A stretch of 64,000 bases of DNA from an uncultured delta proteobacterium (GTDB lineage Bacteria; Desulfobacterota; Syntrophorhabdia; Syntrophorhabdales; WCHB1-27): positions 96,001-160,000 of the forward strand of contig CAWEPK010000017.1 in NCBI GenBank assembly GCA_963810935.1. Direction: 5' to 3'. A model generated the notes under the pieces. It worked only from the letters and a program-made list of their open reading frames with translations, made no database searches and was not told where the DNA came from. The translations under genes and the position numbers were made by a program. Position 1 is the stretch's first letter; each line of letters opens with the position of its first letter. Shown one piece after another: positions 6,841-11,326 of the stretch.

Positions 6841-6868
6841 TCCGTCACCCTGGCGGAGGCCAGGGTCC
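6841..6868. repeat. Left arm of a paired palindromic (REP/CIR-like) element interrupted by the first IS
   Basis: TCCGTCACCCTGGCGGAGGCCAGGGTCC; hairpin ACCCTGGC-GGAG-GCCAGGGT; outer TCCGTCA is complementary to TGACGGA at 8427-8433. Confidence 0.75.
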
Positions 6869-6885
6869 CATATAGCTGACAGTTG

Positions 6886-7160
6886 TCAAGCAGATTGTGC
6901 CTGCCCCTTTTTCTTTTTGTCTTTACATCCTATCAATCATCAATGTTATAAGAGGGCTCCGGGGGACGGGACTCATCTTGCGACGTTTGATCATTCTCAT
7001 ATTCGCGGATTTAACCGCATGACTTGGCTTCGTCACGGGAGCTGCCCTCGGTCTAGGTTCTTGAGTTCGGCTTTCGCCTTATCTATATGGACTCTCCGTG
7101 GGTTCTCCCAACGCGGTCGCGTCCCTCCGTATGCCCTGGATTCGCCTCCTTAAAGTAATG
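6886..7160 (-). ncRNA. Putative bridge/seekRNA of the first IS
   Basis: ~275-nt non-coding region 3' of the transposase with stems (GGGAG..CTCCC, GGCGAAAGCC, GCGG-TTAAAT-CCGC) and short matches to the element junctions. Confidence 0.6.
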
Positions 7161-8270
7161 TCATTGTTCCGCCGCCACTTCCCTCGCTATGGCCCATATG
7201 AACCCCGTAAGCTCCCGTGCTATGGCTACGGTGATCTTCGTCTTCAGCTTTCCTCTCGCCATGAGCCTGCGGAACCTGCCGCAGAGCCTTACTTGAGCCT
7301 TCCAGGCAATATCGAGGACAGACTTTGGCAGGCCTTCATGACGCTTAAGCAGATGTCTGCTCACACGGGCAGGGAAGCCATAGGCATGGGAAGCTTCAAT
7401 GAGCACCCGGCGAACATGGCCGTTGCCCGTTTTGGTGATGCTTCCCCGGTGGACGCTCTCCCCCGTGGAGTGCTCCGAGGGGACGAGCCCAAGATAGCCC
7501 ATCAGTTGCCGGGGGTTCTCGAAACGGCTCATGTCGCCGATCTCTGCGATGGTAGTTGCCGCAACGATCGGGGCCACGCCTCTTAAGGCTTGCAGGGCCT
7601 TGACGACGGGGTTCAGGCGCCAGTCGGGAAGGAGCTTTATTATCTGGTCGGTCAAACGAGCCACTCGCTCCGCACATGCAGTGACAGTATTGATATACTC
7701 CTGCAATACAATCTGCTGGGACGGATGAGGAAGGGCTATATCAGAGAGCCATCGTATATGCATAGGCGTCCATGACGCCTTGCCGGGATACCGTTTCCCA
7801 TAACGGAGGAGAAAGGCGTTCAACTGATATCGCGCGGTCTTCGACGCCTTGGAGGCATCTTCTCTCGCCCTGGTCAGATCGCTCATGGCCTCGTCCTCCT
7901 CACGGGGGACATAGACGGCCGTGAGTTCACCCGCGCGCTCCAGGCGCGCAAGGGTCTCTGCATCCCTTCGGTCGTTCTTGATCCTGTCTCCGCTCTTATG
8001 TGGAGTTTTGGAAGGAGCGACGACCTTGCAGGAAAACCCCTTCCTGGTCAGGTGGCGGTATATCTCATACCCGCAGGGTCCGGCCTCATAGACAAAGCGC
8101 AAGGTTATCCCCCCACTGATGAGCTTCCTTACCGCCCTGTCCAGGGCGTCCATCGTACCGCCTATCTTGCCGTAGTGCCTGACTTCCATCGCTCCATCCA
8201 CATCTGCCGTTGCAATCTGAATGGAGTTCTTGTGCACATCGAGTCCTACAATTGTGATAGAATCTTTCAC
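7161..8270 (-). CDS. IS110-family DEDD transposase/recombinase
   Basis: GLDVHK, YEAGPCG, KNDRRDA and GLVPSEHSTG motifs; likely start GTG at 8270 after AAGGAGG (ORF track extends to 8360). Confidence 0.95.
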   Translation of the reverse strand: MKDSITIVGLDVHKNSIQIATADVDGAMEVRHYGKIGGTMDALDRAVRKLISGGITLRFVYEAGPCGYEIYRHLTRKGFSCKVVAPSKTPHKSGDRIKNDRRDAETLARLERAGELTAVYVPREEDEAMSDLTRAREDASKASKTARYQLNAFLLRYGKRYPGKASWTPMHIRWLSDIALPHPSQQIVLQEYINTVTACAERVARLTDQIIKLLPDWRLNPVVKALQALRGVAPIVAATTIAEIGDMSRFENPRQLMGYLGLVPSEHSTGESVHRGSITKTGNGHVRRVLIEASHAYGFPARVSRHLLKRHEGLPKSVLDIAWKAQVRLCGRFRRLMARGKLKTKITVAIARELTGFIWAIAREVAAEQ

Positions 8271-8378
8271 GGCCTGCCTCCTTATTAGTGGCTCTGTACT
8301 TGGTTTAGCTGCCAGAGTATAACCCACGGTCATAAGGGGCAGGTCCTTTCGTTCCTTCAACTGTCAGCTATTATGTCT

Positions 8379-8433
8379 AGGTCGCTCCAAGCCGAGGAAA
8401 TACCTGGATACCGGCTTTCGCCGGTATGACGGA
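8379..8433. repeat. Right part of the palindromic element interrupted by the first IS
   Basis: AGGT...ACCTGGATACCGGCTTTCGCCGGTATGACGGA; hairpin ATACCGGC-TTTC-GCCGGTAT. Confidence 0.75.
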
Positions 8434-8671
8434 GGCAAGGCGAATCGCCGACTACCGAATACCCGCAGTTGCAGCAATTGGCCCCCGGCCCAATTGCTGC
8501 CGTGGTCGGAGGAGCGCCTCAAGGAATTGCGATAGGCGGATGAAATGGGTGCCTTGCCGCCCGGAGTCTCTATGCTATAAAAGCCCTCTTCCACAGGGGC
8601 GGATAAAAAGGCTACCCTCTTTCTCTTAAGCGATGGATGCACATCGCAAACCAAGGAAAGGGAGGTAGCCA

Positions 8672-9748
8672 ATGGAGATTCATAGGGTACAGGATTTTGT
8701 GGTTGAAGGTAAAGAGGTTTTTATCGGTTTGGAAGACTCAAAGAAGACCTGGAAGATAGCAGTTCGGTGTGACAGGATGGTGATCCACCAGGTATCCATG
8801 GAGGCAAAGTATGTCTTGCTGAAGCAATACCTGAGAAACAGGTTCCCCGGTTGCACGGTCCATTTGATGTACGAAGCAGGCTTCAAGGGGTTCAACCTTC
8901 ACGATCTTCTTGCCGAAGACGGCATCGACTGCGTGGTGATCCCTCCCCATATGGTGACGGAGCCGAAGGCAAACAAGGTTAAGACCGATAAAAGGGATGC
9001 AAACCGTCTCGCCCGCATCCTGGAGAGCCACGATTACAGGGACCCCTGCTGTGTACCCGACAAAGAGAGGAGGGAGGACCGGCAGGTAAGCCGTACCATA
9101 ATCGCCATACAGAAGGATATCATCGGTAACCGCAACCGCATCCGCAAGCTCCTCGACTTTCACGGGATCGAGGTCCCCTTTGCCGGTAAGAGCGAATGGG
9201 GGCGAAAGGAGTTCGAGGGTCTTCGGACATTACCCCTGAGCGATCCCTTAAGGGCAGCTCTGGGCTCGCTTTTGACCATACTGGAGGAACTGTGGGGCCA
9301 GCGTGCGGTCTTGAGGGACTATCTCCGGGGTCTGTGCAAGAAGGAGCGTTATAGAAAGCCCTACGAGGTCGCAAAGAGCATCCCCGGCATAGGGTGGTTC
9401 ACAGCCATCCGCCTGATATTAGAGCTGGGGGAGGATCTCTCCCGTTTCGGAAGCGGGAAGAAGATCGCAGGCTTCGTGGGGTTGGGCTGCAGCGAGCATT
9501 CGACGGGCCAGACCGAACGGAAAGGTCGTATCACGGGCATGGGGTCGGGGTTCATACGGCATATCCTGGTCGAGAATGCCTGGATAGCGATCAGAAAGGA
9601 CCCGGCCCTGCTGTCCAAGTTCTCACGGGTATGGCGGTCGAGCGGCAGCAAGAAGAAAGCCATAGTGGCAGTTGCCCGTACTCTTATTGTGCGCCTTCGG
9701 GCCTGCATGCTTTCGGGCAGGCCTTATACGGTCGGAGTTATTAGATAG
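8672..9748 (+). CDS. IS110-family transposase/recombinase (GLEDSK variant)
   Basis: IGLEDSK, YEAGF.G, KTDKRDA, PGIG, GL..SEHSTG, KKKAIVAVAR; GGAGGT RBS. Confidence 0.95.
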   Translation: MEIHRVQDFVVEGKEVFIGLEDSKKTWKIAVRCDRMVIHQVSMEAKYVLLKQYLRNRFPGCTVHLMYEAGFKGFNLHDLLAEDGIDCVVIPPHMVTEPKANKVKTDKRDANRLARILESHDYRDPCCVPDKERREDRQVSRTIIAIQKDIIGNRNRIRKLLDFHGIEVPFAGKSEWGRKEFEGLRTLPLSDPLRAALGSLLTILEELWGQRAVLRDYLRGLCKKERYRKPYEVAKSIPGIGWFTAIRLILELGEDLSRFGSGKKIAGFVGLGCSEHSTGQTERKGRITGMGSGFIRHILVENAWIAIRKDPALLSKFSRVWRSSGSKKKAIVAVARTLIVRLRACMLSGRPYTVGVIR

Positions 9749-10060
9749 GATGAGCCTGACGGAAGAGGACCTTAACAGAACAAGGGCGTACAACGCCACG
9801 TACGCTGTATTAAAGAACGGCCCGGAGTATGTTGACGCCCGTTCCTCTTTTTTCGAAAAGCAGACACATGTGGGTTGGACCACGAATAGCAGCTTGCAAA
9901 GAACCTCCTCTTCAAGAAAGGCTCGCGCTTCGGCCGCGGACCTGTGTAAGGTCGTCGGCCTCGCGCTCGCTATCGGATATGTACTCACTAATAACAGAGG
10001 GAAAGTCATGGACTGACCCATAAAGAAAAGGGGGTAGCAAAAGCCCGCTGGAAGAATCCG
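9749..10060 (+). ncRNA. Putative bridge/seekRNA of the second IS with a visible target-binding loop
   Basis: Stem GGGCGT(A)CAAC / GTTGACGCCC (9784-9840) encloses ACGTACGCTG (reverse complement of right flank 10077-10086) and GCCCGGAG (identical to left flank 8559-8566). Confidence 0.8.
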
Positions 10061-10264
10061 TTGACTTTTATCATAGCAGCGTACGTCGGTACGTCGGAGG
10101 GCGCAAGGCGAGCAGGGCGCCGCATCCGTCATATCAGTTGAAAGTAGGTTTGCCGGGTGCCCGCACGGTAAAAAGCGTGTTGAAAAGGCGCCACCTTGCA
10201 TGCGGGTGGTCCGCAGCAGGCACGAGTCCAAACCTTGCCACAACATCCGCCTTTGCCTCTATCG

Positions 10265-11326
10265 CTACCACCTGAAGTCCTGTGTCGTCCAACCCGACAT
10301 ACACCTTTCGCGCATCCGCGCATACATCACCGGCAGATCCGCCGCACTCGCCCCCATCAGCGGCGCAATGCACTTCATTGCCCTTACCGCTCCCCACGCC
10401 CTTTGTCTCCCGTAGCCCGTGTGCGCCTGCGCCATATACCGCGCAGTCTTATACAGCGCGTACCCCCTCATCCGCCGGCGCGCCTCCGAATCGTGCGCAG
10501 CATGCTTGCATACCACGTACGCCCTGTTCAGTACCTGCATGACGCCCCATGCGGTCCCATTGACGCGCGCCTCCGGCGCCCGGTTATGGAAGACCCGGGC
10601 GTTTTCCGCATCGACCAGGAGGTGGCTGCCGAGGACTGCAAGGCTCGCATCGTAATCCTCGAACAGGGCATACGTACCCAGCGTCTCGTCGAAGCCCGTT
10701 TTCCGGATCAGGTCCGCCCTGAAGGACATCCTGAAGCCGGGCAGGGCCGTGGCGGGTGTTGCGCCGGCGGCCGCGAGCCAGGCCGGCCTTCCTATCCTTG
10801 CGCTCCGCGAATCGGCTTCCACAAAGAACGGGTCCGGAAACAGCCTGTATTCCAGGGAATCGATGAAACGGCCGACGGAGAGCTGGAGCTTGTCGCGGAG
10901 GGCCATGCGGTACGCCGGGGGCGCACACCCGGACATGCCGGGCGGCAAGGCGGCAACTTCCGTCCCCCCTACCCCGCCTATCGTCTCTTCCGCGTCCGTC
11001 TCGTAGACGCGCATGACGGAATCGGAAAAACCCGGGAACCAGAGGGCGTCGTCGTCGGGGAACATCGCGACAGGCGAGAGCGCGGCATCGAGCCCTGTGT
11101 TGCGCTGGAGGGAGGAGCCGGGCGCGGACCGCAGCACTACGAGGCGCACACCGGGGGCTACATCCCGCGCGATCTGCGCGACGGTCCTCGCGGCCTCCTT
11201 ATGGTTATCGCTCGAATCGACCACGATGAGGCTGCGGGGAAGGCGCGACTGGGAGAGCATCAGCGGAAGGGAAAGCCGCAGGGCCTCCACCCTGTTTCGG
11301 GTGGCAATGACGATATCGAAATCCAA
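10265..11326 (-). CDS. Glycosyltransferase family 2
   Basis: IVIATRNR, IVVDSSD, QRNTG, FPDDD, ED motif; likely TTG start at 11326 after TAAGGA. Confidence 0.88.
   Translation of the reverse strand: MDFDIVIATRNRVEALRLSLPLMLSQSRLPRSLIVVDSSDNHKEAARTVAQIARDVAPGVRLVVLRSAPGSSLQRNTGLDAALSPVAMFPDDDALWFPGFSDSVMRVYETDAEETIGGVGGTEVAALPPGMSGCAPPAYRMALRDKLQLSVGRFIDSLEYRLFPDPFFVEADSRSARIGRPAWLAAAGATPATALPGFRMSFRADLIRKTGFDETLGTYALFEDYDASLAVLGSHLLVDAENARVFHNRAPEARVNGTAWGVMQVLNRAYVVCKHAAHDSEARRRMRGYALYKTARYMAQAHTGYGRQRAWGAVRAMKCIAPLMGASAADLPVMYARMRERCMSGWTTQDFRW

Follow-up and report, generated by a model that had tools for sequence, protein, structure and literature searches.

The insertion sequences closest to the element analyzed here are those of the IS1111 type, which, as described by Siddiquee et al. 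2024 (PMC11187229), have a long downstream non-coding region and sub-terminal inverted repeats, and encode recombinases of ~330-350 amino acids with a C-terminal GL-P----S(t)G motif. In the seekRNAs described in the same paper, the top-strand complement comes first, on the 5' side of the bottom-strand complement, and a long form of the molecule measures 145-170 nt. A bridge RNA was predicted in the right end of 93.0% of the IS1111 elements surveyed by Durrant et al. 2024 (PMC11208160), and the bridge RNA is described there as having the core within all four pairings and a discontiguous pairing between the right donor guide and DNA.

The window, that is, the 64,000-nt stretch analyzed here (positions 96,001 to 160,000 of contig CAWEPK010000017.1 in assembly GCA_963810935.1, from an uncultured delta proteobacterium), contains an ORF (8672-9748, plus strand; stop codon at 9746-9748) that encodes a 358-aa IS110-family recombinase, or transposase. 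Both domains characteristic of IS110, the N-terminal DEDD/RuvC-like PF01548 (E 1.6e-9) and the C-terminal PF02371 (E 6e-18), are detected in this protein above the gathering scores, and the profile NF033542, ‘IS110 family RNA-guided transposase', matches it with 173.6 bits (cut-off 140). The gene belongs to an IS110-family insertion sequence with an IS1111-type organization, namely, a short left end, a long right end and an AG core. The probability that positions 8565-10079 are an IS1111-type element encoding a two-loop bridge RNA or seekRNA is, in our estimate, about 0.9, and the coordinates of the features that make up this reading are collected in Table 1. The mechanism, judging from the sequence, would be that of the bridge RNA and seekRNA published in 2024, found here in an uncharacterized Syntrophorhabdales-like clade, and would involve nothing mechanistically new.

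Table 1. Features of the element, its predicted guide RNA and its target site (positions in the window)
Feature	Position	Strand	Basis or remark
Left target half GCCCGG, flanking DNA inside REP-like repeat	8559-8564	+	Identical to 9820-9825; flank belongs to repeat family
AG core, left copy	8565-8566	+	CCGGAG precedes 4/4 copies; AG starts 95/95 extracted left ends of relatives
Insertion sequence body (TCTC...ATAGC, 1511 nt; 1513 nt with one core copy)	8567-10077	+	Four copies, unoccupied sites
Left sub-terminal inverted repeat CTATGCTATAAAAG	8571-8584	+	4 nt from core; conserved in 73-locus left-end alignment
Candidate -10 box TATGCT	8571-8576	+	Left end, in block conserved across relatives
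Outer closing helix, 5' strand (GAAGAGGA)	9762-9769	+	Minimum-free-energy fold; pairs with 9906-9913
Target-loop basal stem, 5' strand	9777-9795	+	RNAalifold consensus; compensatory CG:41/UA:19, GC:51/AU:8
Predicted right target guide ACGTACG+CT	9798-9806	+	Complements top strand AG+CGTACGT (10078-10086); covaries with right flanks
Degenerate distal hairpin of target loop (TGT-ATTAAAGA-ACG)	9806-9819	+	YGTG...CACR in most relatives
Predicted left target guide GCCCGG+AG	9820-9827	+	Equals top strand, would pair with bottom strand of 8559-8566; covaries with left flanks
Target-loop basal stem, 3' strand	9830-9845	+	Pairs with 9777-9795; T-rich tract 9846-9854 follows
Donor-loop basal stem, 5' strand	9846-9859	+	Pairs with 9894-9903; UA:38/AU:7/CG:3, UA:48/CG:7
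Predicted right donor guide CAGACACA	9861-9868	+	Partly complements core G + left end TCTCTA; 5/8 pair
Distal hairpin of donor loop (TGTGG-GTTGGA-CCACG)	9869-9884	+	Four near-invariant RNAalifold pairs, 9869-9872 with 9881-9884
Predicted left donor guide ATAGCAG	9886-9892	+	Equals right end ATAGC + core AG (10073-10079)
Donor-loop basal stem, 3' strand	9894-9903	+	RNAalifold
Outer closing helix, 3' strand (TCCTCTTC)	9906-9913	+	Pairs with 9762-9769
Candidate -35 box TTGACT	10061-10066	+	Right end, in block conserved across relatives
Right sub-terminal repeat region	10061-10076	+	CTTTTATCATAG at 10065-10076 is the partner of the left inverted repeat, 1 nt from core
AG core, right copy	10078-10079	+	Empty sites: CCGGAG then directly (G)CGTACG; AG ends 72/80 right ends of relatives
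Right target half CGTACGT, flanking DNA inside REP-like repeat	10080-10086	+	Empty sites, flanks of copies

The family profile of the recombinase retrieves the solved structures of ISCro4 (9t56; E 4.6e-7) and IS621 (8wt6; E 2.2e-5), in both cases through the C-terminal domain only, and a phmmer search with the single 358-aa protein found no solved structure at E <= 0.01. The C-terminal motif is GLGCSEHSTG, which retains the G, L and TG of GL-P----S(t)G but has C at the position of P; all 24 aligned relatives have G270, L271 and G279, and the ISCro4 residues aligned with the TG are SG. Given its length of 358 aa rather than 330-350 aa and the C in place of P, the recombinase appears to fall slightly outside the IS1111 description given in PMC11187229. 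Its plasmid-borne relatives are at most 37% identical (~29% for those annotated as ISEc45), and it is by these relatives, the best of them at 37%, that the protein is judged to be distant from those of ISEc11, ISPa11, ISKpn4 and ISPst6. The ‘divergent subfamily' proposed in the sequence-only reading thus holds loosely for the protein, with plasmid-borne relatives at 37% or less and with IS621 and ISCro4 reached by profile only, whereas the IS1111-type organization is ordinary.

Altogether, 1862 related proteins were found, the best 120 of which are 68-100% identical to the query, and the AG-core clade is widespread, with representatives among Syntrophorhabdales-like anaerobes as well as in metagenomes from peat and sediment. 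The genome itself carries further IS110-family recombinase genes (C7:218222-219121, C10:159348-160247, C18:9834-10733, C20:45-944, C8:756114-757010 and C5:364260-365417), four of which encode proteins of ~316-318 aa scoring 229.4 bits each, and the others have open frames of 339 and 456 aa. One relative, L017, with a recombinase 73% identical, is located on a 3.7-kb contig binned as a Nitrososphaerales archaeon, which reflects either a binning artefact or transfer between domains; the target loop of this locus, TGATCCA, matches its flank TGGATCA.

The non-coding ends of the element differ in length, with 105 nt upstream of the recombinase gene (8567-8671) compared with 329 nt downstream (9749-10077). 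Sub-terminal inverted repeats in the range of the IS1111 group (~7-17 bp, with short terminal extensions) are present at both ends: CTATGCTATAAAAG and CTTTTATCATAG are complementary except for a 2-nt indel, and, of the 73 loci in the right-end alignment, most conserve TTGACTTTTATCATAG and ~8 do not align to it. The repeat search returned further imperfect terminal arms (I7 and I8), with the exact 7-nt arm absent among the 25 pairs listed. Four copies of the element, 99-100% identical to each other and embedded in different wider contexts, were detected in the genome, and all four read CCGGAG directly before the left junction and TCTC after it, with CATAGCAG leading up to the right junction. 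The RNA region (9778-9915) shows no differences among these copies, and the recombinase frame is split by indels in copies 3 and 4, that is, 2/4 copies are frameshifted.

Joining the two ends of the element yields a sigma-70-like site, TTGACT-17 nt-TATGCT (9/12), a candidate circle-junction promoter, and 0 sigma-70-like sites were detected when the linear element (8400-10200) was scanned for promoters. The leader of the recombinase gene contains an 18-nt inverted repeat (8610-8627 and 8653-8670; GGCTACCCTCTTTCTCTT vs AAGGAAAGGGAGGTAGCC) that would sequester the ribosome-binding site just upstream of the ATG at 8672. The left arm of this repeat, GGCTACCC, is conserved in relatives, and a third copy of the motif, AAAGGGGGTAGC, is found in the right end, at 10027-10038.

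The exact boundaries of the element can be gleaned from unoccupied target-like sites. The genome contains 25 such sites that fit the pattern CCGGAG(N)C[GA]TACG, nearly all of them within REP-like palindromic repeats, and four are exactly the 15-mer GCCCGGAGCGTACGT; these counts come from an exact pattern search, which was used instead of a search with the 15-mer allowing up to 3 errors, with its 1167 mostly meaningless matches. Only AG is common to both junctions, and the empty sites read CCGGAG(G)CGTACG, which indicates site-specific insertion that leaves a short repeat of the core rather than an ordinary target-site duplication. The empty sites therefore identify C10077 as the last base of the element, AG at 10078-10079 as the core and GCCCGG-AG-CGTACGT as the target. 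The sequence-only reading had placed the right core at AG 10075-10076, 3 nt to the left of the copy that the unoccupied sites define; the empty target that it predicted, CCGGAGCAGCGTACG, has 0 occurrences in the genome, and its 10-nt ‘right flank' is made up of the terminal base of the element, the 2-nt core and 7 target nucleotides. With the junction so corrected, the guide-target pairing shrinks from the ~18 bp originally claimed to 6 + 2 + 7 = 15 bp, and the core is read by both guides.

The repeat family that flanks the window copy is present in many copies (e.g. G000 C5:218533-218770) and covers ~120 nt on the left (8447-8566) and ~190 nt on the right (10080-10270) of the element. Copy 2 sits in another REP-like palindrome, which is shorter (...GAGCCGGAGCATACGT-loop-GTATGTGAGGACTCGC). 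The window copy alone matches the guides fully: at the left guide, 4-5 of the 6 positions agree in copies 2-4; at the right guide, 6/7 agree in copy 2; and copies 3 (C7:15880-17393) and 4 (C5:83380-84886) have one extra G between the core and the right target, so that pairing there would need a 1-nt bulge or another register. An extra base between the core and the guide-matched right flank was also observed at L018, L079, L092, L104, L120 and L123, which suggests, at the level of sequence, that a 1-nt bulge is tolerated or that the register is flexible.

Another insertion sequence lies close by on the minus strand (6867-8380). This first IS is of the IS1111 type and is single-copy in the genome, with a recombinase ORF at 7161-8360 (NF033542, 249 bits) and sub-terminal inverted repeats of 12-14 nt (AGCTGACAGTTG at 8369-8358 and CAACTGTCAGCT at 6885-6874). 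Its long downstream non-coding region includes a hairpin, GCGG-TTAAAT-CCGC, followed by GAATATGAG (7018-6996), which resembles the right end of the same element, ...CTATATGGG. The possibility that the second element landed inside the first one was considered and rejected because the first IS ends near 8375-8380, the flank from 8447 onwards belongs to the repeat family, and 8375-8438 is a different repeat.

The key observations made from the letters of the sequence downstream of the recombinase gene hold up. The stem GGGCGT(A)CAAC (9784-9794), which begins 35 nt past the stop codon, pairs with GTTGACGCCC (9831-9840) with one bulged A; the loop that it closes contains both ACGTACGCTG (9798-9807), which reverse-complements 10077-10086 without a mismatch, and GCCCGGAG (9820-9827), which repeats 8559-8566 letter for letter. 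An independent repeat search lists the 9-nt arm pair 9799-9807/10077-10085 (I17). The top-strand complement (9798-9806) precedes the bottom-strand complement (9820-9827), which is the order seen in IS1111 seekRNAs. A full inner hairpin is present in 55 of the 74 distinct target loops, and the window loop is among the 19 that do not have it.

Matches of this kind could also arise if the loop were a captured or convergent piece of REP-like target DNA, a relic of recombination or a matter of composition, with no guiding role. The target repeats are indeed abundant, palindromic and rich in CGTACG and CCGGAG, and the self-complementarity of CGTACG makes a match on either strand more likely. Furthermore, the single matches are not vanishingly rare: among 50,000 dinucleotide-preserving shuffles of 9749-10064, the 8-nt match to the left junction appeared 419 times and the 9-nt complement of AG plus the right flank 58 times. 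In contrast, the two junction matches occurred jointly in 0/50,000 dinucleotide shuffles of the non-coding region, and the two halves are in opposite sense, at fixed positions of a conserved scaffold. Further evidence on this point comes from the relatives of the element.

An alignment of 24 relatives was used to fetch 72 genome and 80 metagenome loci, and the 107 loci at >=60% identity yielded 99 target loops, 96 donor loops, 95 left ends and 80 right ends. The ends were assigned blind to the loops, at fixed offsets from two conserved motifs, CTATG(C)TATAAAAG and TTGACTTTTATCATAG, and loci were excluded only by these criteria and by collapsing identical guides. The resulting alignments consist of a constant scaffold with hypervariable segments located exactly at the two positions of the matches in the window. 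The left guide is identical to its own left flank upstream of AG at 3.81 of the 6 positions on average (86 loci, 52 distinct guides), compared with 1.57 +/- 0.15 and a maximum of 2.12 in 2000 permutations of the pairings; among the 52 guides, the identity is 6/6 in 3, 5/6 in 10, 4/6 in 17, 3/6 in 20 and 1/6 in 2. For the right guide and its own right flank, the mean longest complementary run is 6.47 (77 loci, 58 distinct guides), compared with 3.19 +/- 0.14 and a maximum of 3.69 for permuted pairings. This run begins directly at the junction in 43/58 cases and one base in for 8 more, and it is 4 or shorter in 10/58 representatives, some of which are mis-anchored extractions or decayed copies, all counted.

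The covariation between guides and flanks means, therefore, that homologues with different flanks carry different, flank-matching loops, far above the level of permuted pairings, rather than keeping the same loop regardless of the flanks. The central proposal of the sequence-only reading, an RNA that follows the transposase gene and matches both halves of a target with an AG core, accordingly is supported by the covariation with flanks across 52 + 58 guides. Capture of REP-like DNA with no guiding role becomes highly improbable because the guides track the flanks in 52 + 58 independent variants, the targets of which are unrelated to this REP.

The conserved scaffold has a well-defined predicted fold. 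In the RNAalifold analysis of 63 sequences, there are 30 consensus pairs, 11 of which show compensatory changes on both sides. The outer closing helix was scored by a per-sequence duplex test, without column-wise counts, because the alignment register drifts in this region; the duplex is better than in shuffled sequences (z < -1.5) in 45/63 relatives. The matches of the covariance model built from the alignment to the genome are exactly the four copies of the element. The search of the whole window against Rfam gave no match at gathering scores, and for 9700-10100 just two sub-threshold, wrong-strand chance matches were found, so that Rfam seems to have no family for this candidate RNA.

Some features of the first stem-loop are those of an intrinsic terminator, and it might be supposed that 9784-9840 together with the T-rich tract serves chiefly as a terminator or 3' stabilizer of the recombinase mRNA, with only incidental matches to the flanks. 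The stem is GC-rich, comprises 16 pairs, is followed by TTCCTCTTTTTT at 9844-9855 and lies close to the stop codon, at the distance of 35 nt given above. However, the terminator scan of 8400-10200 detected no plus-strand terminator-like site, the T-rich tract would, in the predicted fold, form the donor-loop stem with 9894-9903, where compensatory changes are found, and the hypervariable loop segments that track the flanks are left unexplained, all of which leaves very little probability to a function that is chiefly one of termination. The roles of terminator and guide are compatible, and termination could yield the short form of the seekRNA described in PMC11187229.

The second module noticed in the sequence-only reading, with short matches to the donor junction, likewise stands, its best match being ATAGCAG, and the comparison of relatives indicates that this module is a donor-binding loop that covaries with both ends of the element. 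It is organized like the first loop, with a basal stem leading into a 5' guide and a distal hairpin (TGTGG...CCACG) separating this guide from the 3' one. In the relatives, the 3' donor guide AATAG(C/G/T)AG equals the right end plus the core, and in 13/13 distinct pairs (C 8, G 3, T 2) the guide and the right end have the same letter at the variable position that precedes AG. The right donor guide is antiparallel to the core and left end, with positions 3, 2 and 1 paired in 38, 29 and 33 of the 44 distinct pairs; the respective means for permuted pairings are 18.5, 15.8 and 25.8, and the observed values were reached in 0, 0 and 3 of 5000 permutations. The window element, with 5/8 of its own left-end positions paired, compares with 7/8 in the closest relatives, L005 and L008.

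A peculiar pattern is associated with the second base of the left end. When this base is C, the donor guide pairs with it in 0/13 distinct cases (C-T 6, C-A 5 and C-C 2), and the guide position opposite left-end base 2 is G in 0/44 pairs; in the window, the unpaired C is at 8568, opposite 9865. By analogy with the handshake guides of IS621, for which effects were reported in 2026, the unpaired C might represent a programmed mismatch that shifts the balance of the reaction, for example, between insertion and excision. That the AG-core clade is an undescribed IS1111 subfamily with a donor-loop rule of its own, whereby the left-end C at base 2 is left unpaired, appears unlikely.

Covariation cannot separate RNA from DNA, so the guides could, in principle, act as single-stranded DNA of the element, for example, as an excised single-stranded circle, and single-stranded circles have been reported for IS621 in a 2026 preprint (10.64898/2026.08.31.748434). 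However, the stems keep changes of the G-U type (CG:56/UG:7 and AU:54/GU:8), and several guides have ‘TT' in place of ‘CT' opposite the AG core, both of which fit RNA pairing; in the IS1111 and IS110 elements tested in PMC11187229, RNA co-purifies with the protein and is essential. Action as single-stranded DNA thus seems very unlikely.

Under the bridge RNA/seekRNA reading, the first ~165 nt of the 329-nt right non-coding end (~9762-9913) would encode a two-loop RNA in which loop 1 (9784-9840) binds the target and loop 2 (~9859-9893) binds the donor. The 3' segment of loop 2, ATAGC-AG, would mirror the right end and core, and its 5' segment would pair discontinuously with the core and the left end. 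The recombinase, probably anchored on the conserved stems and distal hairpins, would bring together the circularized element (right end-AG-left end) and a REP-like site, GCCCGG-AG-CGTACGT, and the strands would be exchanged at AG. The action of the molecule as RNA, its binding by the recombinase and the existence of a circular intermediate are all inferred from the published work on IS1111 and IS621.

The predicted RNA resembles the seekRNAs of ISEc11, ISPa11, ISKpn4 and ISPst6, as presented in PMC11187229, in its downstream non-coding location, the sub-terminal inverted repeats of the element and the order of the guides; the two guide segments overlap at the junction, as in the IS1111 seekRNAs of that paper, and the length of ~150 nt fits the range of 145-170 nt. 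REP-type repeats, the targets here, are likewise targeted by ISPa11 according to the same source. The donor-binding loop is revealed here by covariation, whereas PMC11187229 stresses the short, target-matching form. With the bridge RNAs of IS621 and ISCro4, as described in PMC11208160 and seen in 8wt6 and 9t56, the element shares two internal loops with two opposite-strand guides each, the involvement of the core in each of the four pairings, the discontinuous pairing of the right donor guide, a distal hairpin that closes each loop and, in the protein, the DEDD domain and the C-terminal Ser/Thr-Gly motif. In contrast to these two systems, the RNA is located in the right rather than the left end, the guides follow the reverse order within each loop, the core is AG rather than CT, the inverted repeats are longer, and the protein similarity extends, at the profile level only, to the C-terminal domain only. 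ISPpu9 (PMC12288879) and ISPpu10 (10.64898/2026.03.19.712850) of Pseudomonas putida also insert into REPs at a fixed position and in a fixed orientation, according to their descriptions, as the present element does; the host lineage and the target sequence are different.

For the genome analyzed here, the element accounts for four insertions into REP-like repeats. More generally, a guide RNA of the bridge/seekRNA class appears to be legible directly from raw sequence, and the locus provides a fully annotated example that covers the four predicted guides together with the core, the stems and the corrected target. The clade is a natural library of at least 58 guide sets on one conserved scaffold of ~150 nt. 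The IS1111-type recombinases are less studied than IS621, and such a guide-target library could help define the pairing rules of IS1111-type elements, that is, the register, the tolerated bulges and the wobble at the core.
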